Shown: piece after piece, positions 5,968 through 55,133 of the stretch | Position numbering within the stretch: position 1 is the stretch's first letter | How the letters are laid out: each line of letters opens with the position of its first letter | Assembly: GCA_001917585.1 (NCBI GenBank) | Contig: MNEG01000048.1 | Span: 23,362 to 87,361 of the forward strand | From: Candidatus Rokubacteria bacterium 13_1_40CM_68_15 | GTDB lineage: Bacteria; Methylomirabilota; Methylomirabilia; Rokubacteriales; CSP1-6 | Direction of reading: 5' to 3' | Length of the DNA: 64,000 nucleotides | Translations under genes and position numbers: made by a program | Notes under the pieces: model-generated | Told to the model about the DNA's origin: nothing | Databases searched by the model: none | What the model saw: only the letters and a program-made list of their open reading frames with translations

Positions 5968-5987
5968 ATATGCTTTAATGAGCATAT
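5968..5987. promoter_or_regulatory. AT-rich inverted repeat atatgct-N6-agcatat, a candidate operator 16 nt upstream of the ModE-like gene
   Basis: Read directly from the sequence: aatATATGCTttaatgAGCATATa. It is a conspicuous AT-rich island in GC-rich DNA, located between the Mo-enzyme operon and the molybdate-regulator/transporter genes. Confidence 0.4.
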
Positions 5988-6002
5988 AGACGAGCCTTTC
6001 GC

Positions 6003-6332
6003 ATGAAGCCCAAGCTCAAGGTCTGGGTGACGTTCGGAGCCGACCTCAAGTTCGGAGACGGCCGCGCTCGACTCCTGGAATCCATCGCGCGGCGCGGCTC
6101 GCTTCGAAAGGCGGCCGAAGACTTCGAGATGTCCTATCGCAACGCGTGGGGCTACCTGCGGGACCTGGAAAGCGCCGCGGGGTTCAAGTTCGTGGAGCGG
6201 GCGCCGGGAGGAGGACCGCAGAGTGGGATGCGCCTGACCCGGGCCGGCCAGCGTTTCCTGACCCGCTACTGGAAGTTCCGGAATGGTCTCGATGACGCCA
6301 TGAAGCGGAATTTCGAGCGATCGTTTCGATGA
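6003..6332 (+). CDS. ModE N-terminal-domain-like (LysR-type winged-helix) transcriptional regulator, without Mop/TOBE domains
   Basis: 109 aa. GDGRARLLESIARRGSLRKAAEDFEMSYRNAWGYL resembles the ModE N-terminal HTH. It is coupled by ATGA to the next gene. Confidence 0.65.
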   Translation: MKPKLKVWVTFGADLKFGDGRARLLESIARRGSLRKAAEDFEMSYRNAWGYLRDLESAAGFKFVERAPGGGPQSGMRLTRAGQRFLTRYWKFRNGLDDAMKRNFERSFR

Positions 6333-18152: not shown

Positions 18153-18782
18153 TCAGTGCGGCTCGCGCAGCAACGCCTGGATGTCCAGGAACGCTTGCCG
18201 CTCGTCGAACAGGCCGAGGTTGTAGATCTCGCGGATCCGGCCCGCGCGATCGATCAGGTAGAGGCGCGCCGGATGGTCGATGTCGCCGTCGGGCAGCCGC
18301 CGCGTCCACTCGTCGTAGCGGGTCAGCACCGGGCCCAGCCGATCACGCTCCGATCGCAGGAAGCGCCAGCCGCGTGGATTCGCCATGAACGCCTGCGCGT
18401 AGCGGGCGAGGACGGCGGCAGAATCGCGCTCGGGATCGACGGTGACCGAGAGCAGCGTCACCGGGCCGGGGAAGAGCTTCGCCTCGGCGAGGCGGCCCTG
18501 AAGCACGGCCATGCGCTGGGTGAGGAGGGGGCACGCAGCCGCGCAGGACGTATAGATGAAGGAGAGCAGCACGACGCTCCCGCGGAGGTCCGACAGCCGC
18601 ACGTCGGCGCCGTTGACGTCGGCCAGCGTGAAGTCGGGAGCCGGCCGGATCACCGCGAGGCTCGGATCGGGCGTCAGTCGCCCGCCCGCTGACGCGGCCG
18701 GCGCCGGCTGGTGGCCGTAGGCGGCGGGAGCCGTGGCGAGGAGCAGCGCCGCGGCCAGGGCACCGAGCCGGCGTCGCCTCAT
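18153..18782 (-). CDS. SCO1/SenC family copper chaperone (thioredoxin fold)
   Basis: Signal/anchor sequence, then LLSFIYTSCAAACPLL (CxxxC) and a downstream His (DIDHPARLYLID). Confidence 0.85.
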   Translation of the reverse strand: MRRRRLGALAAALLLATAPAAYGHQPAPAASAGGRLTPDPSLAVIRPAPDFTLADVNGADVRLSDLRGSVVLLSFIYTSCAAACPLLTQRMAVLQGRLAEAKLFPGPVTLLSVTVDPERDSAAVLARYAQAFMANPRGWRFLRSERDRLGPVLTRYDEWTRRLPDGDIDHPARLYLIDRAGRIREIYNLGLFDERQAFLDIQALLREPH

Positions 18783-18783
18783 G

Positions 18784-19995
18784 TCAGTTCAGCAGCATGT
18801 CGTGCGCGCGCGCCGAGCCACTCGGGAATTTCGTGAAGTCCACGTCGAAGAACGGATCGACCTTGAGCCGGCCATCGGGGCCGATGTGCACGAGACGCAC
18901 CCAGAACTTTTCCGAGTAGTCCATGGTGGACAGCAGCGAGTTGGTCACGTACATGCGCTTGCCGTCGCCGGTGACGTGCATCATGTTCGGCGACACGCCG
19001 GCCACCACCGTGTCGTGGAGTCGGGGCCGATCGGGCGTCGAGACGTCCCAGGCCTGGATCTCGCTCTTCATGAAGCAGGAGACGTAGAGGTAACGGTCGT
19101 CGGGCGACTGGCGGAGATCGGCGGGGAGGCAGCCCTTGCCGAGATCGGCCACCTTCTTCGTGCTGAACTTTCCGTCCTTCCCCTGGCCGAAGAACCAGAT
19201 CGAGTCGCCGAGCGCCGAGTTCGTCCAGCCGTAGGCCCGGCCGGGCTTGACGCTCCAGCGGACCTCGAGCGGCACGGGATCGGTCGTGAGCGTCTGGAGC
19301 ACCTTGCGCTCCTTGAAATCCCAGACGAGCAGCGTGTTCCCGCCGTCCTTCATGTCCCACTGGGACAGCGGCTTCCGGTAGTTCCGCAGCGCCGTGAAGC
19401 TCGACGTGATCATCCGGTTGACGTCCGGCTTCACCGCGACGTCGTACGCGTACGGAGAGTCGACCGGATTTTTGATCACGCGGACGAGCTCGCCGTCGTT
19501 GGTGAACTCGGCCATGCCGCCCGGCGGGTTGCCGTCTGCCGACGACAGGAAGGTCAGGAGCATCCGCCCGGGGAGCGCGTAGTAGGTGTGCGGCCCGTGC
19601 AGACCGGTGACCGCCGAGATGTCATCGATGGTCTTGACGATCGTCGGCCGAGCCGGATCGGCGGCGACGTCGATGATGAAGAGTCGCTTGGACAGGAGGG
19701 CGCCCAGCCAGATCTTGGTGCGGTCGTCACTCCATCCCATGTGGTGAGGCTCGTTGCCCGCCGAGCCGAGGCCGAGCGTGTGCACGACGCGGCCGTACGT
19801 CGGCGAGGCGAGGCTGACGTCGACCACCGCCAGGAAATCATTGTCCCGGCCGTCGGCGTCCACGGCAGAGACGTACAGGAACTTCTCCGGGCCGGCGAGG
19901 CGTTTGACGTACGGCGACAGACAGACCTCGGCGAAGACGGCGCCGGCGGCAACGAGGACCACGAGGACAGCGGCGATGACGATTCGACGTGACAT
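18784..19995 (-). CDS. SBP56 (selenium-binding protein 56 / methanethiol oxidase MtoX-like) family protein, secreted or anchored
   Basis: It aligns along its length with my recollection of human SELENBP1: DFLAVVDV..SPTYGRVVH, EPHHMGWS, LLVWDFKERKVLQTL, DDRYLYVSCF...AWDVSTPDRPRL, DGKRMYVTNSL. Confidence 0.85.
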   Translation of the reverse strand: MSRRIVIAAVLVVLVAAGAVFAEVCLSPYVKRLAGPEKFLYVSAVDADGRDNDFLAVVDVSLASPTYGRVVHTLGLGSAGNEPHHMGWSDDRTKIWLGALLSKRLFIIDVAADPARPTIVKTIDDISAVTGLHGPHTYYALPGRMLLTFLSSADGNPPGGMAEFTNDGELVRVIKNPVDSPYAYDVAVKPDVNRMITSSFTALRNYRKPLSQWDMKDGGNTLLVWDFKERKVLQTLTTDPVPLEVRWSVKPGRAYGWTNSALGDSIWFFGQGKDGKFSTKKVADLGKGCLPADLRQSPDDRYLYVSCFMKSEIQAWDVSTPDRPRLHDTVVAGVSPNMMHVTGDGKRMYVTNSLLSTMDYSEKFWVRLVHIGPDGRLKVDPFFDVDFTKFPSGSARAHDMLLN

Positions 19996-20004
19996 GGCGA
20001 TCTC

Positions 20005-32323: not shown

Positions 32324-33085
32324 ATGATCGTGACGGTCGGCGTCGTCGGCGACTTCGATCCCGGATTCCGTGCCCATCGCGCGACGGACGCGGCCCTCGG
32401 TCACGCGGCCCACGCGTTGTCCATCGCCGTCGACGTGCGCTGGTTGCCCACCGCGGCGCTGACGGCCGCGGACGCGGCGCCGACCCTCGAGCGCTGCGAC
32501 GGCCTGTGGATCGCGCCGGGCAGCCCGTATCAAAGCCTCGACGGAGCGCTGCGCGCCATCCGATTCGCGCGTGAACGGGATTGGCCCCTCGTGGCTACCT
32601 GAGGGGGCTTCCAACATGCTCTGTTAGAGTATGCGCGCAACGTCGCCGGGCTCCCGAACGCCCACCACGCCGAGTACGGTGGCGAGGCCGCGTCGGCGCT
32701 CATCGCGCCGATTGCGTGCGCCGTCACCGGCCGCGCTCCCGGCGCCGCCGCGCTGTCCGGCCCCCGGATGAAGGTCAGCGTGGTGGCCGGCACGCGCGCC
32801 GCCACGATCTACGGGCACCACGTGATCGAGGAGGAGTTCTTCTGCAACTACGGACTGAATCCTGAGTACCAGCAGCGCCTGGTGGCGGGCGGGCTCTCGC
32901 TGACCGGTTTCGATGAGCGCGGCGAGGTGCGGATGGCTGAGCTGCGCGATCGGCGCTTCTATCTGGCCACGCTGTTCCTTCCCCAGCTCGCCTCGACCGA
33001 GTCCAGCCCTCATCCGGTGGTCGTCGCGTTCGTCCGAGCGTCGGCGGCGTTCGCCGCGTCGCGTCCCGTCGCCTCGCTGACGTGA
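32324..33085 (+). CDS. CTP-synthase-C-terminal-domain-like (class I amidotransferase fold) protein with an in-frame TGA at 32600-32602 in place of the nucleophile Cys. Candidate selenoprotein; the alternative is a pseudogene.
   Basis: The ORFs at 32324-32602 and 32768-33085 are in the same frame, with no other stop between them. The joined translation reads ...RFARERDWPLVAT[TGA]GGFQHALLEYARNVAG...FYLATLFLPQLASTESSPHPVVVAFVRAS. It parallels E. coli PyrG ...PYFGICLGMQVALI.YAR.VA...[28 protein letters not shown]. Confidence 0.65.
32615..32633 (+). promoter_or_regulatory. Candidate bacterial SECIS hairpin (8-bp stem with one G-U pair, GUU loop), 12 nt downstream of the TGA at 32600
   Basis: catgctct-gtt-agagtatg. 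It is built from the codons CAT GCT CTG TTA GAG TAT, which look rare for this GC-rich sequence. Confidence 0.55.
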
Positions 33086-35373
33086 CCGCGCCCGCCGGCC
33101 GCTACATCGGGGCTCCGCTCAAGCGCGTGGAGGACCGCGCGCTCATGACCGGCGGTGGCCGCTACGTCGACGACATCGCCGTGCCGGGCGTGCTTCACGT
33201 GCACTTCGTGCGCAGCCCGCACGGCCACGCGCGCATCGTGCGCCTCGACGCCAGCGCGGCGCGCCGCGCCGCCGGTGTCGTGGCGGTCGTGACGGCCGGC
33301 GACATCAAGCATCTCGGCCAGCCGTCGGTGAATGCGTTTTTCCCCGACATGAAGATCGCGCCTTTTCCACTCCTGGCTGGCGACGCCGTGCGCTTCGTCG
33401 GCGAGCCGATGCTCGCCATCGTGGCCGAGACCCTGCCCGCCGCCCGCGATGCCGCCGATCTGGTCGAGATCGAGTACGAGCCGCTGGCCGCGGTGGTGGA
33501 CGCCGAGAGCGCGCAGGCGGCGACGGCTCCGATCGTCCACGAGAGCCTCGGGACCAATCGGGCTCTCGCCGCGGCCTGGCGCGCGGGCGACGCCGCCACG
33601 GCCTTCGCCTCGGCGCCGCACGTCGTCCGCGTCAGTGTCGACCAGACGCGCGTCGCCGCCGTCACGATGGAGCCGCGCGGATGTCTCGCCCGGTACGACA
33701 CCGCCGCCGAGGAGCTGACGGTGTGGCTCACGACCCAGGTACCGTTCCGGGCCCGCGGGGAGATCGCCGCGGTCATCGGCTTCGGGGAGCACCGGATTCG
33801 CGTCATCGCTCCGGACATCGGCGGCGGATTCGGCGCGAAGGGCACGACGTATCGCGACGAGATCCTCGTGGCGTGGCTGGCTGTCTTCCTGCGCCGCCCG
33901 GTGAAGTGGATCTCCACCCGGACCGAAGATCTCATGACGACGCAGCACGGCCGTGGCGCGCGCGCCCACGGGGAGCTGGCCGTGAATGGCGAGGGGAAGA
34001 TCACCGGGTTGCGCGCGCGCATCGCGGTCGCGCTCGGCTCCCAGCTCGTCGTCAACGGCGCCGGGCCGGTGCGCAATCACGGCCGGACGATGCCGGGCGC
34101 CTACGTGGTGCCCGCGGTCGACATCCAGGCGACCGCCGCATACACCACAACGATGTCCACCGGGCCGTATCGCGGGGCCGGCCGCCCGGAGGGCATCTTC
34201 GTGATGGAGCGCCTGATGGACGAGGCCGCTCACGCGCTCGGCCTGGATCCTGCCGACATTCGCCGACGCAACCTCGTGCCCGCCGACGCGTTTCCGTATC
34301 GGACGTCGACGGGGCAGGTCTACGACTCCGGTAATTACAAGGACGCGTTCGAGCAGGCCCTCACGCTGGCCGAGTACGGTCGCCGGCGCGCCGAGCAGGC
34401 GGAGGCCCGCAAGCGTGGCGACATCGTGGGTGTCGGTCTCGCCGCGTACGTCGAGCCGTCGGCGCTCGGCTGGGAATCCGGCAGTGTGCGCATCGAGCGC
34501 ACTGGTGTCGTCACCGTCGTCACGGGCTCGAGCGCTCATGGTCAGGGCCATGAGACGACGTGGGCCCAGATCGCGGCCGACATCCTCGGCGTGCCCCCCG
34601 AGCACATCCGCGTCCGCCACGGCGACACGCAGGCGGCGCCCCAGGGCGTCGGCACGTTCGGCAGCCGCTCCACCGCGCTCGGCGGCAGCGCGGTGTATCG
34701 CGCGGCCGGTGAGGTCCGGGAAAAAGGCCGGCGTCTGGCCGCCACACTCCTCGAGGCGGCTCCGGCCGACGTGATGCCGGTCGCCGGCGGCTGGGAAGTC
34801 CGCGGCGTCCCCGGCCGTCGCGCGACGTGGGCGCAGGTGGCCGATCTCGCCTATCGCGGCACCGGCTTGCCGCGCGGTGAGGCGCCTGGACTCGACGCCA
34901 CCGTGTTCTTCAACGCCGAGGGCGAGGTGTGGTCGTTCGGAACGTGCGTCGCGACCGTCACGATCGATCGCGACACGGGCCGCGTGACGCTCACGCGCTG
35001 TGTCTGGGTGGACGACGCCGGCACCATCATCAATCCGCTGCTGGCCGAAGCGCAGCTGCACGGCGGCTACGCCCAGGGCGCCGGGCAGGCGCTCATCGAA
35101 GGCGTCTTCTACGATGCCGGCGGCCAGCTCCTGACGGCGACGCTCATGGACTACGCGGCTCCGCGCGCCGACGATTTTCCGGAGCCGGTGCTCGGTGAGA
35201 TGCACACGCCGTCGCCCAACAATCCGCTCGGCGTCAAGGGCCTGGGCGAGGCGGGCTGCATCGCGCTGCCGCCGGCGATCGTGAACGCCGTGGTCGATGC
35301 CCTCCGCCCGTGGGGATGCACGCACGTCGACATGCCGCTCACCTCCGAGAAGGTCTGGCGCATTCTCCACTGA
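33082..35373 (+). CDS. Xanthine dehydrogenase/CODH family molybdopterin-binding large subunit (CoxL-like, AYRGAGR-type loop), without adjacent FAD or FeS subunit genes
   Basis: GTG start in a GTGA overlap with the preceding gene. GAPLKRVEDRALMTGGGRYVDD, HFVRSPHGHARI, GGGFGAKG, STGPYRGAGRPEG. Confidence 0.9.
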   Translation: MTAPAGRYIGAPLKRVEDRALMTGGGRYVDDIAVPGVLHVHFVRSPHGHARIVRLDASAARRAAGVVAVVTAGDIKHLGQPSVNAFFPDMKIAPFPLLAGDAVRFVGEPMLAIVAETLPAARDAADLVEIEYEPLAAVVDAESAQAATAPIVHESLGTNRALAAAWRAGDAATAFASAPHVVRVSVDQTRVAAVTMEPRGCLARYDTAAEELTVWLTTQVPFRARGEIAAVIGFGEHRIRVIAPDIGGGFGAKGTTYRDEILVAWLAVFLRRPVKWISTRTEDLMTTQHGRGARAHGELAVNGEGKITGLRARIAVALGSQLVVNGAGPVRNHGRTMPGAYVVPAVDIQATAAYTTTMSTGPYRGAGRPEGIFVMERLMDEAAHALGLDPADIRRRNLVPADAFPYRTSTGQVYDSGNYKDAFEQALTLAEYGRRRAEQAEARKRGDIVGVGLAAYVEPSALGWESGSVRIERTGVVTVVTGSSAHGQGHETTWAQIAADILGVPPEHIRVRHGDTQAAPQGVGTFGSRSTALGGSAVYRAAGEVREKGRRLAATLLEAAPADVMPVAGGWEVRGVPGRRATWAQVADLAYRGTGLPRGEAPGLDATVFFNAEGEVWSFGTCVATVTIDRDTGRVTLTRCVWVDDAGTIINPLLAEAQLHGGYAQGAGQALIEGVFYDAGGQLLTATLMDYAAPRADDFPEPVLGEMHTPSPNNPLGVKGLGEAGCIALPPAIVNAVVDALRPWGCTHVDMPLTSEKVWRILH

Positions 35374-35543
35374 CCGCTCGGCGGTACAATCGCCGGCGGA
35401 GGCGTATTCCATGGCGGACATCGCGATCGGCCGGCTCCTCGCGCGCTTCCCGCGTGTGCGTCGCGCCGGATCGCCGGTACGCGAGCGCCGCGCCCGTTTT
35501 CGCGCCCTCCTCTCGTTTCCCGTCGCCGTCTGAGGATTTTCTC

Positions 35544-36452
35544 GTGACGGCCGGCATCGTCCTGGCCTGCCCCTGCGGCGAGGTCTACGAGTTGAAGCCC
35601 GAATTTGCCGGCCGCCTGCTCGAGTGCCCGGTCTGCAACCGGCATCTGCGCGCGGGCATGCCGCCGGGGACACCGCGTCGGGCGATGCCGGATCTCGAGC
35701 CGGCGTTCGATCGCGATGTGTTCCTGCTTCGCGAGCGTGTCCTCTCGATCTCGTCGAAGTACGAGGTCTGGTCCGGGGACGGCCGGCCGATCCTCTACGT
35801 CGAGCGCCCGACCTATCTCCTGCGAACGGTGCTGGCGTACCTCCTGGCCGCGATCGCCGCGTCCTTGGTGATGGCGTGGACGGGCGAGGTCGTGGCCGCC
35901 AGCGGCGCCACGCTCGGGGCTCTGGCCGCGCTGCTCGGGTACGGGCTCGCGCTGGCGACGTTCATCGTCGTCTCGATGTCGGCCCGGCCGTTGCGTCACG
36001 TGACCGTCTTCCGCGACGACTCGCGCCGTGAAGTCCTCCTCCGCGTCTGGCAGGATCAACGGGTGGCCGTCCTCGCCCGGACCTACACGGTGGTGACGGC
36101 CAGCGGCCTCACGCTCGCCCGGCTGCGCAAGGAATACATCCACAACGTCTTTCGCAAGCGCTGGTACGTGGAGACGCCGGCCGGCCAGCGCACCGCGATG
36201 GCCATCGAGGACTCGATCGTGCTGTCGCTGCTGCGACGCGTCCTCGGGTCGCTGTTCGGTCTCCTGCGGACGAACTTCATCCTCGTCCGTCTCGACGCCG
36301 GGTCGGCCGGCATCGTCTTCGGTGAGTTCAACCGGAAGTTCACCATCCTCGACCGGTACGTCCTCGACCTCACCGGCGATCCCGAGCAGATCCTGGACCG
36401 GCGCGTCGGGCTCGCCCTCGGCGTGATGCTCGACACCGGCGAGGGCCGCTGA
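35544..36452 (+). CDS. Membrane protein with an N-terminal zinc-ribbon-like CPCG...CPVC motif and scramblase/LURP-one-like (tubby-fold) segments
   Basis: GTG at 35544. LACPCGEVYELK...LECPVCNRHL. SISSKYEVWSGDGRPILYVERP. Two hydrophobic helices. C-terminus FNRKFTILDRYVLDL...DRRVGLALGVMLD. Confidence 0.5.
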   Translation: MTAGIVLACPCGEVYELKPEFAGRLLECPVCNRHLRAGMPPGTPRRAMPDLEPAFDRDVFLLRERVLSISSKYEVWSGDGRPILYVERPTYLLRTVLAYLLAAIAASLVMAWTGEVVAASGATLGALAALLGYGLALATFIVVSMSARPLRHVTVFRDDSRREVLLRVWQDQRVAVLARTYTVVTASGLTLARLRKEYIHNVFRKRWYVETPAGQRTAMAIEDSIVLSLLRRVLGSLFGLLRTNFILVRLDAGSAGIVFGEFNRKFTILDRYVLDLTGDPEQILDRRVGLALGVMLDTGEGR

Positions 36453-36507
36453 CGGGGAGGGTTGGATCACGCACGACGTCGAGCGCCCGCTCCGCATCAC
36501 CTCCGAC

Positions 36508-37209
36508 ATGCTGCTCTCACGCCGCGTGGACTTCGAGCGCCGGATGCGCCGCCTGCCGCGGGTCACCACGGGGCTCATCGCAGTGCTGATGTTCGTCTTC
36601 AGCGTCGAGGTCGCGTTCGACGCTCTCGACACCGACCACGGCATCATCACCATGGGCGCCCTCTTCAGGCCGGCCGTGGCCGCCGGCGAGTACTGGCGCC
36701 TGCTGAGCGCGACGTTCCTGCACGGCAGCTTCGATCACCTGGTCGGCAACGCCGTCGCGCTCTTCATCCTGGGCATGGTGTGCGAGCACGCGTTCGGCCG
36801 GCGGCAATTCGTCGTGCTCTACGTCGCGAGCGCCGTGGCCGGGTCGCTGCTCAGTCTGCTGTGGAGTCCCGGCCCGTCGGTCGGCGCCTCCGGCGCCATC
36901 TTCGGCCTGCAGGGCGCGGCCATCGCGCTGTTCCGCCGCCACCGCGATCGGCTCCTCGTGCGCGACCGCCGCATCGGCGTGGTGCTGATCGTCTGGGCCA
37001 TCTACACGGTGCTCGGCGGATTGACCACGCCCTACATCGACAATGGCGCCCACATCGGGGGTCTGTCCGGGGGCTGGCTCGTCGGCCGGCGACTGCACCC
37101 ACTGGTGCTGGAGCCGATGCCGCTCGAGCGTGCCCGGGTCCTCCGACGGTGGCTGTGGATCGTCTGGATCGTGCTCGCCTACACGGCGATCGGCTGGCTG
37201 TTCAGATAG
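36508..37209 (+). CDS. Rhomboid family intramembrane serine protease
   Basis: FLHGSFDHLVGN, the catalytic GASGAIFG and HIGGLSGG. Confidence 0.9.
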   Translation: MLLSRRVDFERRMRRLPRVTTGLIAVLMFVFSVEVAFDALDTDHGIITMGALFRPAVAAGEYWRLLSATFLHGSFDHLVGNAVALFILGMVCEHAFGRRQFVVLYVASAVAGSLLSLLWSPGPSVGASGAIFGLQGAAIALFRRHRDRLLVRDRRIGVVLIVWAIYTVLGGLTTPYIDNGAHIGGLSGGWLVGRRLHPLVLEPMPLERARVLRRWLWIVWIVLAYTAIGWLFR

Positions 37210-38146
37210 CGGCCAGGTCTCGCGCGGCCGGAATGTTCGGGAGCGACGTCGCGGCGCGCGCGCCCCGAGCGATCGCGCGGGCGACGGCGTCGGCGGCGAG
37301 GACACCGAGGCGGGTGAGATCGAAGGCCGTCTCCCCCACGGACAGCACGAACAGCGAGTCGCCGTCGAACGCCGTATGCGGTGGCGAGAGCGCACGGCCG
37401 AAGCCGACCATCGCCAGCGAGGCCACCCTCGTCGCCTCCACCTTCATGAGACGCGCGTTGGTCGCCACCACGCCGATGGTGGTGTGGCTTGGACCTCCGA
37501 AGCGTCCCGCGCCGGCCGCGATGGCGCGCGCCGAGTCGATGAGGCGGCGGCTGCCCGGCGCCTCCCGCGTTCCCGCGATCAAGGCCCCCGTTTCGGGATC
37601 ACGCACGTCGCCGACGGCGTTGACCGCCATCAGCGCCGTCACGACGACGTCACCGGCGTCGGCGGTGGCGATGCCGACGCCTCCCCGCATCGCGCAGGCG
37701 ATCCCGTTGACCTTGCCGACGGTCGCGCCGGTGCCGGCGCCCACGCTGCCCTCGGCCACGGGGCCCGCGGCCGCGCTCTTCGCCGCGTCGTACCCCATCT
37801 CGCGCGTCGGGCGAGCGTGAGGGTCACCGACGTTGAGGTCGAACAGGAACGCGCCAGGGACGTGGGGGACGACGGCCGCGCCCACGCGGAACCCGACGCC
37901 GCGCTCCTCGAGCCAGCGCATCACGCCGTAGACCGCCTCCTCGCCGAAGCGGCTGCCGCCACCGAGCACGATGCCGTTCACCGTGCCCACGAGGTGTCCT
38001 GAGTCGAGGTGGTCGAGCCCGACGACGTCGTTGGCGCCGCCGCGCAGTGCGATGCCGGCCACGGCCGGCGCGTCGCTGAGCACGACCGTGACGCCGGTGA
38101 GTCCGACGGGGTCGGTCGCGTGGCCGACGCGGATGCCCGCAATCAT
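37202..38146 (-). CDS. P1 (DmpA/S58) family aminopeptidase
   Basis: IRVGHATDPVGLTGVTVVL...GGANDVVGLD...GAGTGATVGK...NTTIGVVATNA pattern. Confidence 0.8.
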   Translation of the reverse strand: MIAGIRVGHATDPVGLTGVTVVLSDAPAVAGIALRGGANDVVGLDHLDSGHLVGTVNGIVLGGGSRFGEEAVYGVMRWLEERGVGFRVGAAVVPHVPGAFLFDLNVGDPHARPTREMGYDAAKSAAAGPVAEGSVGAGTGATVGKVNGIACAMRGGVGIATADAGDVVVTALMAVNAVGDVRDPETGALIAGTREAPGSRRLIDSARAIAAGAGRFGGPSHTTIGVVATNARLMKVEATRVASLAMVGFGRALSPPHTAFDGDSLFVLSVGETAFDLTRLGVLAADAVARAIARGARAATSLPNIPAARDLAAI

Positions 38147-39318
38147 TGGAGCGGCCGCCGCGAGCCCGGATCGCTCCGTGGGCGGCCTGTTCCAGGCACG
38201 TTGGGCCGTCGCGTCGCATCCGCCGCCGAGAGCCGGCCGAGCGCGACCTCGCCCGCCACCTCGAGCGCCCGTGCGGCCAGCTGGCGGGCGAACGGGTGGC
38301 GGTGCACGCTGCGGCTGTCGTCGGCGAGCGCGGCCGCGGCGGCGCCGGCGAGCGCAGCATGCTCGCCGCGGCCGGTTGCATCGAAGACCAGCGCCATCTC
38401 GGCGAGCCGGCGCGTCCAGCGATCGCGCGCGTCCGGGGTCAGCTCTCGCTCGACGACGCGAGTGATCAGCGCCTCCTGCCGCTCGCCCTTGATCTGGTCG
38501 GAGACGACCAGCCGGCTCTCACGTGCCTGCAGCATCTCGAGGGCGTCGGGCTGGACGCGCTCGGGCTCGAGGAACCATCCGGTCAGCTCGGGCAGATGCA
38601 GCAGCTCGGCAGAGCGCTCGACGAGCGCGGGGTCCGCCGGCGCCAGCGCAGGCAGCCCGGCCGCTGCCACGTCGTCGAAGAGCGGACGCCAGCGCTCGAA
38701 GGCGGCCGGCGGCGACGTCGCCGCTCGACGATGACGGGCGAGCGCCTCGGCGACGAAACCCGCCGCCCGCTCGGGATCGGTCTCGACCCATGGCAGTTTC
38801 TGCGACGCGGCCAGCTCGGCGAGCTCACGCTCGAGGCGCTTCCTGGTGATGTCGCCACCGGCCACGTCGAGGATGCCGATCTCGTCGTTGAGGATCAGCG
38901 AGCAGAGACGAAGCGTGCCGAACGCGCCCTCGAAGAGGATCCAGGACGCGCGGGACCCGGTGCCGTCGATGCCGGAGAGCCAGGCTCGAATGGGCCGCGC
39001 GTTGCCCCGCGTGACGAGTGGACGAGCCGCCGGAGCGGTGGGCGTGACCGTCACGCCTCGCTGGGCGAGGCGATAGATGACGCGCCGGGCGGGCCGGCGG
39101 AGCGCGCGAGTCGTGTGGTCGGCGAGCGCGGAGAGGAGGGGAAGCGCGGCCGCACCGTGCTCACGGGCGAAGGTCCACAGGGTCTCTTCGAGGCGGGCCG
39201 GCGGCGCCGCCGCGAGTACGGTGACCTCGGTGGCGCCGGGCAGCACCTTCGTCGCCAGCCAGTGATCGAGGAGGCGCCGGCAGGCGGCGTCGGCCGCCGG
39301 CTCGGACGCCGGCGTCAT
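38143..39318 (-). CDS. Hypothetical protein (391 aa), no family recognised
   Basis: Long ORF coupled by ATGA overlaps to both neighbours. Helical, Ala/Arg/Leu-rich. Confidence 0.6.
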   Translation of the reverse strand: MTPASEPAADAACRRLLDHWLATKVLPGATEVTVLAAAPPARLEETLWTFAREHGAAALPLLSALADHTTRALRRPARRVIYRLAQRGVTVTPTAPAARPLVTRGNARPIRAWLSGIDGTGSRASWILFEGAFGTLRLCSLILNDEIGILDVAGGDITRKRLERELAELAASQKLPWVETDPERAAGFVAEALARHRRAATSPPAAFERWRPLFDDVAAAGLPALAPADPALVERSAELLHLPELTGWFLEPERVQPDALEMLQARESRLVVSDQIKGERQEALITRVVERELTPDARDRWTRRLAEMALVFDATGRGEHAALAGAAAAALADDSRSVHRHPFARQLAARALEVAGEVALGRLSAADATRRPNVPGTGRPRSDPGSRRPLQ

Positions 39319-39824
39319 TCGAAGGCGAGGCCGAAGAAGCGGTGACCGGCGCCGTCGCGGAAGTGGACTCGACGCGTGTAGTCCAGCGCGCTGGCGAAGC
39401 TCTCGAAGTGCTCGGCCAGCCGCCGGTACGGCGCCGCCCGCTGGGTGGCGCGCGCATGCTCGGAGACGAAGTGGTAGGCGCGCTTGCCCTGCGCGACGTA
39501 GAAGGCGTGACTGGCCAGGCGCTCGACCCGCTCGCGGAAGACGCCCGTCATGAACATGGTGTAGTCGCCGATATGGCGACGAACCGACACTTCGTGCTCC
39601 GGCTGGAACGTCGGCGTGTCTTCCTGCCAGGCCGACTGGACCTCGAGGAGCATGTCGACGACGGTCTCCAGCCGCGGCAGCGCGACGCCGGCGGGAAAGA
39701 GGTTCTCGGTGCGAGCGAAGCGCGTGAGGAGGTCGGCGAGGTACGTTGCCGCCGGCTCGTCCGCGATGGCGAGGTCGTTGAACGACGCCCGAACCGCTTG
39801 GTCGAAGAAGCGTCGCAGCTCCAC
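39315..39824 (-). CDS. Hypothetical protein (169 aa), no family recognised
   Basis: Non-low-complexity, protein-like sequence (FRERVERLASHAFYVAQGKRAYHFVSEH...). ATGA overlap with the downstream gene. Confidence 0.6.
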   Translation of the reverse strand: MELRRFFDQAVRASFNDLAIADEPAATYLADLLTRFARTENLFPAGVALPRLETVVDMLLEVQSAWQEDTPTFQPEHEVSVRRHIGDYTMFMTGVFRERVERLASHAFYVAQGKRAYHFVSEHARATQRAAPYRRLAEHFESFASALDYTRRVHFRDGAGHRFFGLAFE

Positions 39825-39897
39825 GAGTATCCTCCCTCGTCCGCTGAAGCTTCTCCGTCGATCATAGCAGATCGCGTGCGCGACGCCGCCGACCGGT

Positions 39898-40227
39898 TTG
39901 CTAGAATCACGGGCCGTGGCCGCCGAGCCTCGTCGAACGACTCCCTGGCTGATCGTCGTCGCCGCGGTCCTGCTGGCAGGACTTCTGGCTTACACCGTCT
40001 TTGCCGGCTGGGTTCCGACCAAGCAGCGGATGACACGTCTCGAGGCGGAGATGAAGGACGTCTACGCGCGGGAAGCGGCGCTGCAGACGAGGCTGGCCCA
40101 GCAGGAGCAACGGTCGACGATGCGCGAGCAGCAGCTCAATGCGCTGCGCAGCGAGCGCGACGAGCTCGCCCGCCGCGTCGAAGACCTCGAGCGGGAGCTG
40201 GCCGCCGCCCGCGCTCGCCGCCGTTAA
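39898..40227 (+). CDS. Membrane-anchored coiled-coil protein (109 aa)
   Basis: One TM helix (WLIVVAAVLLAGLLAYTVFAGW) followed by a heptad-like region rich in E, R, Q and L. The start is TTG at 39898 or GTG at 39916. Confidence 0.55.
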   Translation: MLESRAVAAEPRRTTPWLIVVAAVLLAGLLAYTVFAGWVPTKQRMTRLEAEMKDVYAREAALQTRLAQQEQRSTMREQQLNALRSERDELARRVEDLERELAAARARRR

Positions 40228-40898
40228 GCTCCCAGTCCCAACAGCCGGGGCAAGCGCCGGCCGAAGACCTCGGCGGCGACCTTGAACGTCTCGACCACGG
40301 TTGCCGCGGCGCCGTCGGCGCGCGTCGCGTTCCACCACCGACCCAGATGCTCTTCCGACCGGAAGAAGTTGATCGTGTGTCAGAGGCCGGCGCAGGCCTT
40401 CGCCCGGATGTCCTCGCGCTTGGCCAGCCACACCATCGCCGGCGTCGGCTCGAGCGGCCCGTCGGGGGCGATGCGCAGCACGAGTGGTTCGCCGCAGTCG
40501 TGGCAGCGGGAGTGGATCGTGAGCGTCTCGCCCATGAGCGTGGCGGCGCCAAGGGCATCGAACGCGCAGCAGGCATACCGGGGGCGTCCATCGGCAGGCT
40601 CGAGACGGAACGCGTTCATCCTGGCGCTGAACGGATAGGCGAGGACGATGGCGCCGGCCTCGACCAGCACCAGATCGAACTCGTCCAGCTCCGCGACGGC
40701 GGCGGCGACCTCGGTGGGCTCGTGATCCGGCAGCAACCCGGCCACGGGAAGCGCGCCTTCGCCAGCGGCCAGGCGACGAATGATCGCACCGAGGACGCGC
40801 CGAGCAACCGGACCGATGGCCTCACGCTCCGTCCACCTGGCCTGGAACGCGGCATCCATCAGCTCCTCGGCGAGCTTGACGGCGTAGCCTGACGCCAC
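40224..40898 (-). CDS. MerB-like organomercurial (alkylmercury) lyase family protein with an in-frame TGA at 40380-40382 aligned to catalytic Cys159 of MerB. Candidate selenoprotein; the alternative is a truncated gene or pseudogene.
   Basis: The listed ORF 40380-40898 ends ...KACAGL[TGA]. The same frame continues HTINFFRSEEHLGRWWNATRADGAAATVVETFKVAAEVFGRRLPRLLGLGA to a TAA at 40224. RYACCAFDALG matches MerB YAWCALDTL (Cys96/Asp99). [TGA]HTINFF matches CCHVHFF, gapless on the FF pair. Confidence 0.65.
40350..40367 (-). promoter_or_regulatory. Candidate bacterial SECIS hairpin (7-bp stem, GGUC loop), 12 nt downstream of the TGA at 40380-40382
   Basis: The minus strand reads uga-cacacgaucaac-UUCUUCC-GGUC-GGAAGAG. 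As I recall, GGUC is also the apical loop of the E. coli fdhF SECIS. Confidence 0.55.
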
Positions 40899-40918
40899 GC
40901 CGCGGAGGATAGCTCAGT

Positions 40919-41323
40919 TCAGGCGGCGCGGCGCACGGTCTCGCGGGCGCGCGCTGCGGTGCTCGACAGCGTTTCCTGCACGCGCTGACCCGCCTGCTCG
41001 GCCGTGGCGTGCACGCGGTCCACAGCCTGGCTCAGCGCGCGGACGTTGGCACCCATCAGCCGGAACGTGCGCTGAGCCGTGTCCACACCTTCGAGCAGCA
41101 CTGTCTGATACCAGCGCAGGGGATCGCTGACGAGCTCCGGCCACATGGCGTGCCAGCGCAGCATCGCGTCTTGATGCTCGCGCAGAGCGTCGAGCGATGA
41201 GCGCTGCAGGTCGGCCAGGAGCCCGCTCGTCTCCTTGACCGCTGCGATCGAAAGCTCGGTGAGATCGCCGAGCAGCCGGCGGTTGGCGTCGGCCCACAGC
41301 TCACTCTGTTCTTGTTCGGCCAT
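40919..41323 (-). CDS. Hypothetical helical protein (134 aa)
   Basis: Protein-like helical sequence; no family recognised with confidence (vaguely phasin-like). Confidence 0.5.
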   Translation of the reverse strand: MAEQEQSELWADANRRLLGDLTELSIAAVKETSGLLADLQRSSLDALREHQDAMLRWHAMWPELVSDPLRWYQTVLLEGVDTAQRTFRLMGANVRALSQAVDRVHATAEQAGQRVQETLSSTAARARETVRRAA

Positions 41324-41335
41324 GCTGACTTCCTC

Positions 41336-41551
41336 CTACGCCGCCTCGTCACCGCGGTGGCGGCGCTCGACGACGCTGATTCGGACTTTTCCCTCACGGG
41401 CGAGGATGGCCACCAGAGAACCGGCAGCGTCCTCGGAGATGTGGAGTCGCCGGGCGATCGTCTGAAGCGAGGTCGTGCCGCTGTCGCCCTCCAGGCTCTC
41501 GAGGAAATCGCGCTCGATGTCGGCCCACCAGTCGTCCGTCGGTCTAGACAT
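41336..41551 (-). CDS. Small winged-helix-like protein (71 aa)
   Basis: TSLQTIARRLHISEDAAGSLVAILAREGKVRI looks like an HTH or winged helix. It overlaps the upstream gene by 8 nt. Confidence 0.5.
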   Translation of the reverse strand: MSRPTDDWWADIERDFLESLEGDSGTTSLQTIARRLHISEDAAGSLVAILAREGKVRISVVERRHRGDEAA

Positions 41552-41831
41552 CGCCGCGCACCGTTTCGCCGTCGATGTCGAGGAACACGAGCGGAGTCTC
41601 CGCCCTCACCCAGATCGCCGACGCGACCGCGCCCGTCTTGCTGTTGAGCCCTTGCCAGACGCCTCCGGCGGGGGCGCGATCATGGCCGCAGCGTGCGATC
41701 TCGCGCTTGTACTCCTCGAACCCGTCGTGGGCGAGCGCGCTCACCACATCGTCGAGCTCGGCAACCCACGCGCGTTGCTCCCCGGACCATCGCATCGTTC
41801 CGTTCTCTCGAAGTTCGGTCAACCGCTCCAT
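41544..41831 (-). CDS. Hypothetical small protein (95 aa)
   Basis: I prefer the internal ATG at 41831 (MERLTELRENG...), because the 49 residues upstream look non-coding (Ser, Arg and Ala rich). Confidence 0.45.
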   Translation of the reverse strand: MERLTELRENGTMRWSGEQRAWVAELDDVVSALAHDGFEEYKREIARCGHDRAPAGGVWQGLNSKTGAVASAIWVRAETPLVFLDIDGETVRGDV

Positions 41832-51309: not shown

Positions 51310-51684
51310 GTGTTCAAACCGCTTGGCCTCGATCACGTGGTGCTCCGGGTATCGGATCAGGCGCGCTCGCAGCGCTTTTACGTCGAGATGCTGGGATGCA
51401 CCGTCGACCATGTCAACGAGCGGTTATCGCTGATCCATCTTCGCTTCGGCGGTCACATGATCGATCTGGTGCCGGCCTCGGTGGGCACGCCGACCTCCGG
51501 CGGTGTCGATCATGTATGCCTGTCAATCGACTGCAATGATCTGGCGGGTGTCGCCAGGGAGCTCAAAGCGCGGGGGGTGACGGTGGAGGGCGAGGTTGCC
51601 GACCGGCGCGGGGCCTATGGTCGGGGCCCGTCGATCTACATCCGCGATCCGGACGGCTACAAAATCGAGCTGAAGCCGCGCTGA
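51310..51684 (+). CDS. VOC (glyoxalase/bleomycin resistance/dioxygenase) family protein
   Basis: LDHVVLRVSDQARSQRFYVEMLG...DHVCLSI...DPDGYKIEL. GTG start. Confidence 0.8.
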   Translation: MFKPLGLDHVVLRVSDQARSQRFYVEMLGCTVDHVNERLSLIHLRFGGHMIDLVPASVGTPTSGGVDHVCLSIDCNDLAGVARELKARGVTVEGEVADRRGAYGRGPSIYIRDPDGYKIELKPR

Positions 51685-51688
51685 CGGG

Positions 51689-51985
51689 CTAGTACGCCCA
51701 GTGCCCGGGTACCCAGACCCAGGCGTATCCATTCCATACCCACTGGCTCGGGTACCACGCCGGCTGAATCACCGGCGTCCCCACGCTACCCGGGGCGACT
51801 GCCACACCTCCGGGCCCTGGGACGACGACCGTCGTATGCCGGTGCTGGTGTCCCCAGGATGCCCACGGGTCCCGGTAGGTAGGGAAGACGCTGGGCTGTC
51901 CGACGAGCTGACCTGCCGAGGCGGGGCCGATCGCGACACCGACCATCACCGTGATCCCCAGAGCCAGCAGCAGCAGCCGTTTCAT
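51689..51985 (-). CDS. Small secreted Trp/Tyr-rich protein (YXWGXW-repeat-like C-terminus)
   Basis: Signal peptide MKRLLLLALGITVMVGVAIGPASA. C-terminus WYPSQWVWNGYAWVWVPGHWAY. gggagg lies upstream of the ATG at 51985. Confidence 0.6.
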   Translation of the reverse strand: MKRLLLLALGITVMVGVAIGPASAGQLVGQPSVFPTYRDPWASWGHQHRHTTVVVPGPGGVAVAPGSVGTPVIQPAWYPSQWVWNGYAWVWVPGHWAY

Positions 51986-52063
51986 ATAGAATGCCTCCCT
52001 GCCACATGTGACGTGACCGGTCCCGTGACCATTCACGTAGAGCGTGTTCCTGGGAGGACGGCG

Positions 52064-53596
52064 ATGGAGGAGATATCGGTTCCCGCGATGACTCTCTCGC
52101 GCCCGCCGATCGACGGTGCAGCGCGAGCTCCCCGAGACCTGCGGGCCTGGGTCGACGCCGTCGAGCGGATCGGCCAGCTGCGTCGGATCACCGAAGAGGT
52201 CAGCCGCAACGAGGAGATGGGCGCCATCACCTATATGGCCCATCAGGAGATCAACGCCCCAGCGCTGCTCTTCGAGAACATCAAGGACACGCCTCGCGGC
52301 TTTCGCGCCCTCTGGAACCCCCTCGGTTCCAGCGTCGACCGCTTCGCCGTCGCCATCGGGGAACCGGTGGGGCTTGGAGTGATGGAGCTCGTTCGCCGGT
52401 GCAAGACCAAGCTCATGAGCCCGATCCCACCCGTCCTCGTCGAGAGCGAGGGCGCGCCCGTGAACGAGAACCATCTCTATGACGACAAGGTGGATGTGCG
52501 CGGCTTCCCGGCCGCCCGCCACTGGGCCGGTGACGGTGGTGAGTACATCGGGACCTGCGACGCGATCATCACGCGCGATCCCGATGGCGGATGGCTCAAC
52601 GTTGGAACGTACCGTCAGATGGTCCAGGGCAAGAATCAGGTTGGCCTGTACCTCTCGCCCGGGAAGGACGCTCGGCTGCACATCGAGCGCTACTGGAGCC
52701 GGAACGAGCCCTGCGAGGTGGTCTGCTGCTGGGGCATCGACCCCGCACTCTTCATCGCGGCGTCCCAGACGTTTCCCAAGACAGTGTCCGAGCTCGACTA
52801 CGTCGGCGGCCTCAAAGGCGCGCCGGTGGAGATGGTGAAGGCGGAGCGCACGAGCCTGCTGTATCCGGCGCACGTCGAGATCGCCGTCGAAGGCGTGATC
52901 GCGCCGAACTCGCAGAAGCTCGAAGGACCGTTCGGCGAGTTCACGGGCTATTACGGGCGGCCGGAAGACCTCGCGTTCCTGGTCGACGTCAAGGCCGTTC
53001 ACCATCGCGACGATCCGATTCTCACCCATGCGCTCATGGCGGACTATCCGGCCAACGAGTGTGCGCTGCTCTACTCGGTGGCTCGGTCGGCGAGGATCTG
53101 GAACGACCTCGAACGCCTCGGAGTGCCCGGGATCAAGGGCGTCTACGCGCATCCTGCCGCCGCCGGCGGCTTCGCCATGACGGTCGTGTCGCTCGAGCAG
53201 CGCTACGCCGGCCACGCGTCCCAGGCCCTCGCGCTCACGGCGCAGTGCCCGGGCGGCGCCTACTTCTCGAAGTGGATCGTCGCAGTGGACGAGGACGTGG
53301 ATCCGTCGAACACCAACCAGGTGATCTGGGCGATGTCCACGCGCTGCAACCCAATCGAGGACATCGACATCCTTCGCCAGACGTGGTCGACCTGGCTCGA
53401 TCCGACGCAGAACCCACCCGAGGAGCGGCCGTACGGCTCGAAGGCGCTCATCAACGCGTGCATGGAGCACCGTTACATCAAGCAGTTCTCGAAGCGCACC
53501 AAGATCCGCCGGTCCGTGTACGAGAGCGTCGCCGCCCGCTGGGCGCAGCTCGGCTTCAAGGGCCGGCCGCCGGCGCTCTGGGCGCTGGAAGACTGA
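52064..53596 (+). CDS. UbiD family (prFMN-dependent) decarboxylase/carboxylase, paralog 1
   Basis: The ATG at 52064 is preceded by gggagg. 510 aa. DLRAWVDAVERIGQLRRITEEV...NAPALLFENIK, followed by the UbiD core. Confidence 0.85.
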   Translation: MEEISVPAMTLSRPPIDGAARAPRDLRAWVDAVERIGQLRRITEEVSRNEEMGAITYMAHQEINAPALLFENIKDTPRGFRALWNPLGSSVDRFAVAIGEPVGLGVMELVRRCKTKLMSPIPPVLVESEGAPVNENHLYDDKVDVRGFPAARHWAGDGGEYIGTCDAIITRDPDGGWLNVGTYRQMVQGKNQVGLYLSPGKDARLHIERYWSRNEPCEVVCCWGIDPALFIAASQTFPKTVSELDYVGGLKGAPVEMVKAERTSLLYPAHVEIAVEGVIAPNSQKLEGPFGEFTGYYGRPEDLAFLVDVKAVHHRDDPILTHALMADYPANECALLYSVARSARIWNDLERLGVPGIKGVYAHPAAAGGFAMTVVSLEQRYAGHASQALALTAQCPGGAYFSKWIVAVDEDVDPSNTNQVIWAMSTRCNPIEDIDILRQTWSTWLDPTQNPPEERPYGSKALINACMEHRYIKQFSKRTKIRRSVYESVAARWAQLGFKGRPPALWALED

Positions 53597-53600
53597 CGCG

Positions 53601-55133
53601 ATGGAGGAGATGAGCGTCCACGTCGGAGCGCCCACCGGCTCCGAGGCCGTGAGCCCGGGACAGGCGCCCCGCGATCTGCGCGCGTGGATCGATGCGGTCG
53701 AGCGGATCGGCCAGCTTATGCGCGTGCGCGAAGAGGTCAGCCGCAACGAGGAGATGGGCGCGATCACGTACATGGCCCATCAGGAGATCAACGCCCCCAC
53801 GCTGCTCTTCGAGAACATCAAGGAGTCACCGCGGGGCCATCGCGCCCTCTGGAATCCGATCGGCTCGAGCGTGGACCGCTTCGCGGTCGCCATCGGTGAG
53901 CCGCCTGGTCTCGGTGTGATGGAGCTGGTCCGGAGGTGCAAGAGCAAATTCTCGCTGGCGATCCCACCCGTGATCGTGGACGGTGAGGGCCAGCCCGCCA
54001 ACGAGAACCACCTCCGGGACGACAAGGTGGACATCCGTGACTTCCCCGCCGCGCGCCACTGGGCGCGCGATGGTGGCGAGTACATAGGGACCTGCGACGC
54101 CATCATCACCCGCGATCCCGACGGCGGCTGGCTCAACGTTGGGACCTATCGCCAGATGGTCCAGGCCAAAAATCAGGTCGGGCTCTATCTCTCACCGGGC
54201 AAGGACGCGCGGCTCCACATCGAACGGTACTGGAGCCGGGGTGAGGCGTGCGAGGTCGTGATGTGCTGGGGCATCGATCCCGCGCTCTTCATCGTCGCCT
54301 GTCAGACGTTTCCCAAGACCGTCTCGGAGCTGGACTTTGCCGGGGGCTTGATGGGACGTCCCGTGGAGCTCGTGAAGGGCGAGGTGACGAGCCTCGTCTA
54401 TCCGGCCCGCGCGGAGATCGTGGCCGAAGGGACCATCCCGCCCGACTCGCAGAAGCTCGAGGGGCCGTTCGGCGAGTTCACCGGATACTACGGCCGCCCG
54501 GAAGACCTGGCGTTCCTCGTTCACGTGAAGGCCGTCCACCATCGCGACAACCCGATCCTCACCCACGCGTTGATGGCGGACTATCCCGCCAACGAGAACT
54601 CCACGCTCTTTTCCATCGCGCGGTCGGCGCGGATCTGGAACGACCTCGACCGGCTCGGTGTGCCCGGGCTCCGGGGCGTCTATTCGCATCCCGCGGCGGC
54701 GGGCGGCTGGGGCATGACCGTGATCTCGCTCGAGCAGCGCTACGCCGGCCACGCCCCCCAGGCGCTCGCGCTCGCCGCCCAGTGCCCGGGGGGCGCGTAC
54801 TACGCGAAGTGGATCATCGCCGTGGACGAGGATGTCGATCCTTCGAACATCAACCAGGTGATCTGGGCGATGTCCACGCGCTGCAATCCGGTCGAGGACA
54901 TCGACTTCCTGCGCGCGACGTGGTCGACGTGGCTCGATCCGACCCAGAACCCGCCCGAGGAGCGGCCCTACGGATCCAAGGCGCTGATCAACGCCTGCAT
55001 GGAGCACCGCTACCTCAAGCAGTTCTCGAGGCGCACGAAGATCCGCCGGTCCGTGTACGAGAACGTTGCCGCGCGCTGGGCGCAACTCGGCTTCACGGGC
55101 CAGCCGCCAGCGTTGTGGGCACTTGACGATTGA
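53601..55133 (+). CDS. UbiD family (prFMN-dependent) decarboxylase/carboxylase, paralog 2
   Basis: 510 aa. It is collinear with paralog 1 and identical at most positions by eye, and starts 4 nt after paralog 1 stops. Confidence 0.85.
   Translation: MEEMSVHVGAPTGSEAVSPGQAPRDLRAWIDAVERIGQLMRVREEVSRNEEMGAITYMAHQEINAPTLLFENIKESPRGHRALWNPIGSSVDRFAVAIGEPPGLGVMELVRRCKSKFSLAIPPVIVDGEGQPANENHLRDDKVDIRDFPAARHWARDGGEYIGTCDAIITRDPDGGWLNVGTYRQMVQAKNQVGLYLSPGKDARLHIERYWSRGEACEVVMCWGIDPALFIVACQTFPKTVSELDFAGGLMGRPVELVKGEVTSLVYPARAEIVAEGTIPPDSQKLEGPFGEFTGYYGRPEDLAFLVHVKAVHHRDNPILTHALMADYPANENSTLFSIARSARIWNDLDRLGVPGLRGVYSHPAAAGGWGMTVISLEQRYAGHAPQALALAAQCPGGAYYAKWIIAVDEDVDPSNINQVIWAMSTRCNPVEDIDFLRATWSTWLDPTQNPPEERPYGSKALINACMEHRYLKQFSRRTKIRRSVYENVAARWAQLGFTGQPPALWALDD

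Follow-up and report, generated by a model that had tools for sequence, protein, structure and literature searches.

The stretch of DNA analyzed here (64,000 nt, approximately 70% G+C; hereafter the window) comes from Candidatus Rokubacteria bacterium 13_1_40CM_68_15 (assembly GCA_001917585.1, contig MNEG01000048.1, positions 23,362 to 87,361) and contains two unrelated genes, one encoding a glutamine-amidotransferase-like protein and one encoding a protein of the alkylmercury-lyase (MerB) family, each of which carries an in-frame TGA followed closely by a predicted RNA hairpin. As judged from sequence comparisons, both TGAs are very probably selenocysteine (Sec, U) codons, which would be decoded by the ordinary mechanism directed by a selenocysteine insertion sequence (SECIS). 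Positions are given in window numbering, with the coding strand indicated as (+) or (-).

The amidotransferase-like gene (site 1; 32324..33085, +) has 253 codons, with the in-frame TGA at codon 93 (32600..32602, +), and ends in another TGA (33083-33085), which overlaps the GTG start of the next gene. The candidate Sec codon is followed by a 12-nt spacer, GGGGGCUUCCAA (32603..32614, +), which encodes GGFQ, and by a SECIS-like hairpin (32615..32633, +), in which CAUGCUCU (32615-32622) and AGAGUAUG (32626-32633) form an 8-bp stem that includes one G-U pair and is closed by the apical loop GUU (32623-32625). In the predicted protein, the candidate Sec residue is found in the context PLVAT-U-GGFQHALLEYAR. 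The gene matched NCBIfam NF004836 with 288 bits (cutoff 260) over residues 4-240 and model positions 2-227 of 228, and was also matched by Pfam GATase. Alignment to CTP synthase structures placed the TGA opposite the nucleophile Cys of the motif GIC(L/F)G(M/L/F)Q, and a near-invariant Cys was found in this column in 24 full-length homologues (43-56% identical).

The MerB-like gene (site 2; 40224..40898, -) has 224 codons, beginning with a GTG at 40898 and ending with a TAA at 40224-40226; its in-frame TGA is codon 173 (40380..40382, -). Here, the 12-nt spacer, CACACGAUCAAC (40368..40379, -), encodes HTIN, and the SECIS-like hairpin (40350..40367, -), which encodes FFRSEE, consists of a 7-bp stem formed by UUCUUCC (40367-40361) and GGAAGAG (40356-40350) and the apical loop GGUC (40360-40357). 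The protein context is ACAGL-U-HTINFFR. Pfam MerB (PF03243) matched the protein with 77.5 bits (cutoff 27), covering the full 126-position model. U173 was placed opposite MerB Cys159 by an hhalign profile comparison (97.9% probability) as well as by a HMMER alignment to the MerB and MerB2 structures, and C111 and D114, the equivalents of MerB C96 and D99, are invariant. A plain MAFFT alignment put C169 opposite C159 instead; this placement was set aside because HMMER and hhalign both support U173, which also matches MerB2. Four full-length MerB-like homologues have a Cys at this codon, and Cys forms of the gene carry TGC or TGT there. A previous reading of the window from its sequence only had proposed that both TGAs fall on catalytic-Cys columns, and the alignments bear this out, with the CTP synthase nucleophile Cys at site 1 and MerB Cys159 at site 2.

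Hence, in both genes a spacer of exactly 12 nt separates the TGA from a hairpin (8 bp with a GUU loop and 7 bp with a GGUC loop, respectively), and 20 nt (site 1) and 19 nt (site 2) lie between the UGA and the loop. Apart from this geometry, the two hairpins have hardly any sequence in common. The two sites, their spacers, the 7-8-bp stems and the G-first, U-containing loops were all located where the sequence-only reading had put them. In RNAfold predictions, both hairpins represent the dominant local structure; the 23-nt hairpins have energies of -8.5 kcal/mol (site 1; z = -3.4) and -7.8 kcal/mol (site 2; z = -2.0), with z-scores calculated against dinucleotide shuffles.

This geometry is rare after TGA triplets in the window. 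A scan with a fixed 7-bp stem across all 1475 TGA triplets on both strands found only 3 (0.2%), including site 2, that have a G-first loop of 3-4 nt on a stem of 7 bp or more beginning precisely 12 nt downstream; a looser rule, which allowed the hairpin to start at 10-14 nt and the loop to have 3-5 nt, found 19 (1.3%), including site 1. Site 1 was detected under the looser rule only, because the fixed 7-bp scan read its 8-bp stem as starting at 13. At arbitrary positions the corresponding rates were 0.1% (strict) and 0.7% (looser). A total of 265 in-frame TGAs in the window have at least 40 open codons on both sides, and only the two sites described here join such a hairpin with real coding sequence both upstream and downstream. 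The remaining in-frame TGAs were rejected as recoding sites, being antisense shadows or ordinary gene junctions, and other positions combining a TGA and a hairpin (e.g., 41645 and 62041) were rejected as lying in non-coding frames. A separate region, 5982-7180 (+), has a layout that looks like that of a split LysR-like gene; here, a 116-codon open reading frame (ORF) with only a LysR-type helix-turn-helix overlaps a PBP_like_2 ORF through an ATGA. A GC-rich hairpin comes after the TGA of this overlap, but the gene further downstream is read in a different frame.

The possibility that the two TGAs are sequencing or assembly errors, or that UGA is reassigned throughout the genome, has a negligible probability and was rejected. 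Ten independent contigs from separate ENA and JGI soil metagenomes (six for site 1 and four for site 2; 97.4-100% identical to the window) all keep the respective TGA, which speaks against base-call errors. TGA is also the commonest true stop codon in the window. Among the 34 family-supported genes with a readable stop, 22 end in TGA, so the code is not reassigned; moreover, all seven ATGA or GTGA overlaps listed in the sequence-only reading (at 6329, 10431, 12561, 28514, 28747, 30509 and 33082) are present. TGA thus is a normal stop codon here, as had been claimed.

Conservation of the TGA and of the reading frame around it extends to more distant relatives. For the MerB-like gene, a scan of one genome per species yielded 69 related loci, nearly all of them in metagenome-assembled genomes (MAGs) of Candidatus Rokubacteria, Rokuibacteriota or Methylomirabilota, and 53 of these 69 loci have a TGA at the codon in question, at protein identities of 36-83%. 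In the TGA loci, the codon is followed in frame by the motif x-T-[L/I]-N-F-F-R-S-E-[E/D]; L precedes U in 49 of 53, with F, T or H in the others. For the amidotransferase-like gene, metagenome contigs were searched with a pattern specific to the TGA form, which gave at least 120 matches representing at least 117 distinct sequences, in which the protein is conserved on both sides of the TGA; as the pattern required a TGA, these numbers count TGA forms only and are no test of other stop codons in the family.

These data bear directly on the possibility that the TGAs are true stops, i.e., that the genes are pseudogenes or are truncated or split, with the downstream frame being untranslated or separately translated. 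Automatic gene callers do treat the genes in this way. In public metagenome gene calls, the amidotransferase-like gene is split into 92 + 105 amino acids (aa) and the MerB-like gene is a 172-aa stump in every Sec-type match, protein-search homologues of the latter (43-85% identical) all end at exactly this codon, and translation of the second part of the amidotransferase-like gene could resume from an ATG at 32768. Against this possibility, the stop in each of the two genes would have to coincide precisely with the catalytic Cys column, and the truncated products would be without essential parts of the fold. In addition, the codon is always TGA and never TAA or TAG in the 53 MerB-like loci (and in the at least 117 site-1 forms, which were found with the TGA-requiring pattern), and the residues encoded in frame directly downstream of the TGA are strongly conserved, including, in the amidotransferase-like gene, the 55 codons that precede the potential restart ATG. 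Taken together, true stops appear extremely unlikely.

At the RNA level, the hairpin of site 1 shows signs of selection beyond the encoded protein. Its codons include several that are rare in the genome (here and below, percentages refer to all codons for the respective amino acid in the window), namely TTA (0.1% of Leu), GCT (5.6% of Ala), TAT (19% of Tyr) and CAT (25% of His), and the joint codon-usage probability of the hairpin is approximately 7e-7. Among the matches listed, approximately 70 of 117 TGA forms (~60%) have the same type of hairpin, which is the dominant type and has an 8-9-bp stem starting 11-12 nt past the UGA and a GGU or GUU loop. Most of the other TGA forms among these matches have 6-7-bp hairpins that are shifted by 2 nt with the loop start unchanged, and 20 sequences have an imperfect hairpin; G-first loops (GGU, GUU, GGUCG and others) are found in most of the relatives. 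In 96 distinct 39-nt sequences, 82.6% of the cells are paired in the 8-bp structure, compared to 14-61% when the 3' arm is slid, and compensatory changes, with both sides altered, were found for 3 pairs (22 cells). Three amidotransferase-like Cys forms do not have the hairpin.

For the MerB-like gene, the nucleotide-level comparison used 53 Sec-type sequences (the window and 52 loci). A 13-mer, TTCTTCCGGTCGG, is present in all 53, and a 17-mer, TTCTTCCGGTCGGAAGA, is present in 48 of 53 compared to none of 5 Cys forms (Fisher p = 5.5e-5). The hairpin Arg is encoded by CGG in 53/53 of these sequences and the hairpin Ser by TCG in 53/53, even though these codons account for only 28% of Arg and 43% of Ser codons, respectively; the first hairpin Glu is GAA in 49/53 (14% of Glu codons). 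The loop GGUC is invariant across the clade. By comparison, CGG, CGC, CGA and AGG are used freely for an Arg six codons downstream, and the five readable Cys forms have either lost the hairpin (L012) or vary at synonymous positions (TTT, CGT, GAG, GGA). Support for RNA-level selection on this hairpin comes from the fixed synonymous sites and not from compensatory change. In combination, the Cys alignments, the conservation of TGA and frame, and the conservation of the hairpins at the RNA level support the site-specific Sec insertion originally proposed.

Some observations weigh against Sec insertion at these sites. The stem of the MerB-like hairpin is invariant and thus provides no covariation. 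Part of this hairpin also comes for free, because UUY (Phe) pairs with GAR (Glu); this codon-level self-complementarity of FF-RS-EE accounts for 6 of the 7 pairs, and the hairpin is also possible in some Cys-type relatives (L203-L205 and L069). Among the matches listed for the amidotransferase-like gene, approximately 40% of the TGA forms have other hairpin shapes. The 51-nt stretches after the two TGAs (-14.2 kcal/mol at site 1 and -16.6 kcal/mol at site 2) are not unusually stable compared to shuffled GC-rich sequence (z = +0.2 and -1.1), and neither hairpin had an Rfam match at gathering or permissive thresholds. Finally, no tRNA-Sec was found by ARAGORN in the 64-kb window or in 205 related loci (1.24 Mb), and no selA, selB or selD was found in either set by tblastn with the E. 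coli proteins.

With regard to this machinery, ARAGORN found no tRNA genes of any kind in the window, and Pfam searches of approximately 40 of its ORFs identified no selA, selB or selD. The absence of these genes from the window and from 1.24 Mb of related loci says nothing either way about the rest of the genome. Sec-type hydrogenases have been reported in Methylomirabilota genomes (PMC13582414); a literature search for a link between Rokubacteria and Sec machinery found nothing specific. A SCO1/SenC gene adjoins a gene of the SBP56 family (56-kDa selenium-binding protein/methanethiol oxidase) at 18153-20004 (-), and this pair might be a further connection of the window to selenium or sulfur.

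Comparison with described bacterial elements showed that both hairpins fall within the consensus of Zhang & Gladyshev (2005). As given in section 5 of PMC13188914, this consensus comprises a 3-9-nt loop, a 4-16-bp upper stem, a G at either the first or the second loop position, mostly with G or U after it, a distance of 16-37 nt from the UGA to the apical loop, and a minimum free energy of -7.5 kcal/mol or lower. For sites 1 and 2, respectively, the loops have 3 and 4 nt, the stems 8 and 7 bp, the distances are 20 and 19 nt, and the energies are -8.5 and -7.8 kcal/mol, so that all four criteria agree. Two further criteria for selenoprotein genes, applied by Haft & Gwadz as well as by Zhang and co-workers, are an in-frame TGA opposite a conserved Cys, which is found at both sites, and at least 10 examples that invariably have a TGA at the site and protein similarity through it, of which there are 53 loci for the MerB-like gene and at least 117 sequences for site 1.

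The sequence-only reading had also likened both hairpins to the minimal E. coli SECIS, and this likeness holds in part. As in E. coli fdhF, the UGA is closely followed, still within the coding sequence, by a hairpin with a small G-first, U-containing loop, and the GGUC loop of the MerB-like gene is identical to that of fdhF. In 5419 of 5426 E. coli genomes, the fdhF UGA is followed by 11 nt and then by GGUUGCA-GGUC-UGCACC, i.e., the spacer has 11 and not 12 nt, and the loop starts 18 nt past the UGA as compared to 19 and 20 nt here; site 1 further differs by its 3-nt GUU loop. The determinants of SelB recognition in fdhF are loop G23, loop U24 and the bulged U17 (PMC8659212). While the loop G and U are found at both sites, both stems are perfect and the bulged U17 is missing, which sets them apart from the E. 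coli-type minimal element.

If the established bacterial pathway is taken over for these genes, the ribosome would reach the UGA and SelB would bind the apical loop of the hairpin that starts 12 nt downstream, with recognition occurring through the G-first, U-containing loop that begins 19-20 nt past the UGA. SelB would then deliver selenocysteyl-tRNA(Sec) to the A site, such that Sec is inserted and termination by release factor 2 is avoided. The matching layouts in two unrelated genes could be explained because the same SelB and the same ribosome spacing must be fitted in both. The predicted products would be a glutamine-amidotransferase-like NF004836 protein, with Sec in place of the nucleophile Cys, and a MerB-like lyase, with Sec in place of the metal-binding Cys159. 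For both genes, we infer that SelB binds and that tRNA-Sec, SelA and SelD are present, as well as the chemical nature of the inserted residue and the substrates of the enzymes.

The hairpins could also merely stimulate leaky read-through of the UGA by a near-cognate tRNA (e.g., Trp), with no selenium being involved, as downstream structures are able to stimulate read-through in some systems. On the other hand, homologues have Cys rather than Trp at the catalytic position, a G-first loop at a fixed distance fits SelB-type elements (PMC13188914; PMC8659212), and the site-1 family is already annotated as a selenoprotein by NCBI. Read-through of this kind is thus exceedingly improbable. Another mechanism, in which the UGAs are recoded through SECIS and SelB as cysteine by a tRNA(Cys) with a UCA anticodon (tRNA-ReC/SelC*), would leave every sequence feature found here identical. 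As described in PMC13582414, certain bacteria have such tRNAs, which function together with SelB and a SECIS located downstream (Vargas-Rodriguez et al. 2018). This mechanism would require an additional, less common tRNA on top of the same machinery, and tRNA-ReC is found in only ~2% of Sec-type genomes other than the UXXU type (PMC13582414). Moreover, a change from TGC to TGA would give no benefit if the product were unchanged, yet TGA is fixed in more than 50 lineages, with Cys forms persisting. Cysteine insertion consequently appears very unlikely, and insertion of Sec is preferred at both sites.

The site-1 family is already known, as it is a named selenoprotein family at NCBI. Xiao & Zhang (2025; deep-Sep; PMC12013277) described it as a new selenoprotein (glutamine amidotransferase, COG0504), with a published example from Desulfosediminicola (Desulfobacterota), and it is also included in a 2026 catalogue (PMC13188914). 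The protein in the window shares with NF004836 the catalogued GxUxG-type motif (T-U-G-G) and the position of U at the amidotransferase nucleophile Cys, and there is no essential difference apart from the host, which is a Rokubacteria-like soil bacterium here and a member of the Desulfobacterota in the published example. None of 120 loci among the matches listed shares the neighbourhood of the gene in the window. Across the NF004836-like family, in Cys as well as Sec forms, the His and Glu of the class-I amidotransferase triad are missing, with TLF[L/V/Q]PQ standing opposite the xxHPE of CTP synthase, and two more Cys residues (C132 and C174) are invariant. Since the triad His and Glu are missing, the family may not represent a glutaminase.

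The MerB superfamily likewise has a known Sec branch, SaoL, a fact that the sequence-only reading had missed, as it had the naming of the site-1 family. SaoL (NF040728) is a MerB-like selenoprotein of the nine-gene SAO locus, with a CU motif and Sec opposite Cys159, and its hosts are exclusively anaerobes (Haft & Gwadz 2023; bioRxiv 10.1101/2022.07.06.499078). Like SaoL, the MerB-like protein in the window belongs to PF03243, has its candidate Sec opposite Cys159 approximately 50 residues before the C-terminus, keeps the equivalents of Cys96 and Asp99, and is usually truncated in databases. However, it reached only 49.5 bits with the SaoL model (cutoff 140), over residues 62-144 only, its motif is A-G-L-U-H (L-U-H/T in the clade) and not C-U, the gene is not surrounded by the nine-gene SAO neighbourhood, and the hosts of the clade are soil and groundwater Rokubacteria. 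By these comparisons, the protein is not SaoL. In the one catalogue that was checked (PMC13188914, 2026), the clade is absent and only SaoL is found under MerB-like. With MerB lyase (EC 4.99.1.2; structures 3F0P and 5C17), the protein shares the fold family and the catalytic positions C96, D99 and C159, but Sec would replace Cys159, and its scores are below the NCBIfam equivalog cutoffs (62.5 vs 193 and 51.9 vs 200 bits).

The MerB-like gene may define an uncatalogued selenoprotein clade, in which TGA is fixed in more than 50 species-level genomes of soil and groundwater Rokubacteria/Methylomirabilota, which is distinct from the anaerobe-only SaoL, in which Sec takes the place of the mercury-binding Cys159, and whose SECIS seems to have been recruited from a hairpin that FF-RS-EE encodes anyway; the arguments for and against this proposal in its entirety appear evenly balanced. 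Recruitment of the SECIS from such a hairpin would make this clade an unusually clear case of a Cys codon becoming a Sec codon. The clade is an only partly novel element, as the mechanism and the other family are already known.

The genes found next to some relatives make a role of the clade as organomercurial lyase plausible. Two Cys-type relatives (L203 and L204; 45-50% identical) are located directly after merA, with merE also present in L204, which is a transposon-like contig (mer coordinates 3-251 in L203 and 275-4944 in L204). Two Sec-type loci also have merA-like neighbours, i.e., L032 (7258-8562) and L046 (2980-4326), the latter together with a merE-like gene (312-521). Most Sec-type loci, including the window, are without mer genes, and no neighbourhood is conserved across the clade. 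The closest relative (L011, from isolate AR17; 83% identical) has nine neighbour genes in common with the window, and it is the only relative that shares this neighbourhood. The neighbours in the window either have no Pfam family or belong to unrelated ones (Y4lR_C, Peptidase_S58 and Rhomboid). The MerB-like protein probably has organomercury or related organometal compounds as its substrates. Selenium has a far higher affinity for mercury than sulfur, and a Sec residue at the metal-binding position therefore raises the question of how the product would be released, or whether mercury is the real substrate at all.

The findings presented here are mostly a correct re-discovery, with a textbook mechanism and one catalogued family. 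The MerB-like clade would nevertheless add a second, apparently unlisted selenium-containing branch to the family of mercury-carbon lyases. This clade is widespread in an abundant uncultured soil phylum, and Rokubacteria would join the lineages that evidently depend on selenium. For annotation, the two sites are of value since both genes are cut or truncated in public metagenome gene calls.

A number of additional observations were made on the MerB-like clade. Some Rokubacteria MAGs have two copies of the gene (L034/L036, L054/L058 and L031/L069); one of these, GB_HAYS_MAG_00007, has a TGA copy (L031) as well as a TGC copy (L069) in which most of the hairpin is kept. Three Sec-type genes with the invariant hairpin are located on contigs that were binned elsewhere, i.e., in Candidatus Nitrosocosmicus (an archaeon; L028), Myxococcales (L049) and Vicinamibacterales (L057) MAGs; these probably represent mis-binned Rokubacteria contigs or transfers. 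One of the ten independent contigs that keep the TGA (L010, ENA contig ERZ27315225) has a C-to-U change in the stem, which converts a C-G to a U-G pair. In the comparison with window positions 40348-41825, it matches the window at 97% identity as far as the 3' arm of the hairpin and then continues into a diverged homologous C-terminal domain, a switch that may represent a recombination junction at the invariant hairpin.

Elsewhere in the window, at 51674-55133 (+), two tandem UbiD-family decarboxylase genes with overlapping open frames are followed by genes for a TRAP-type transporter and an amidohydrolase.

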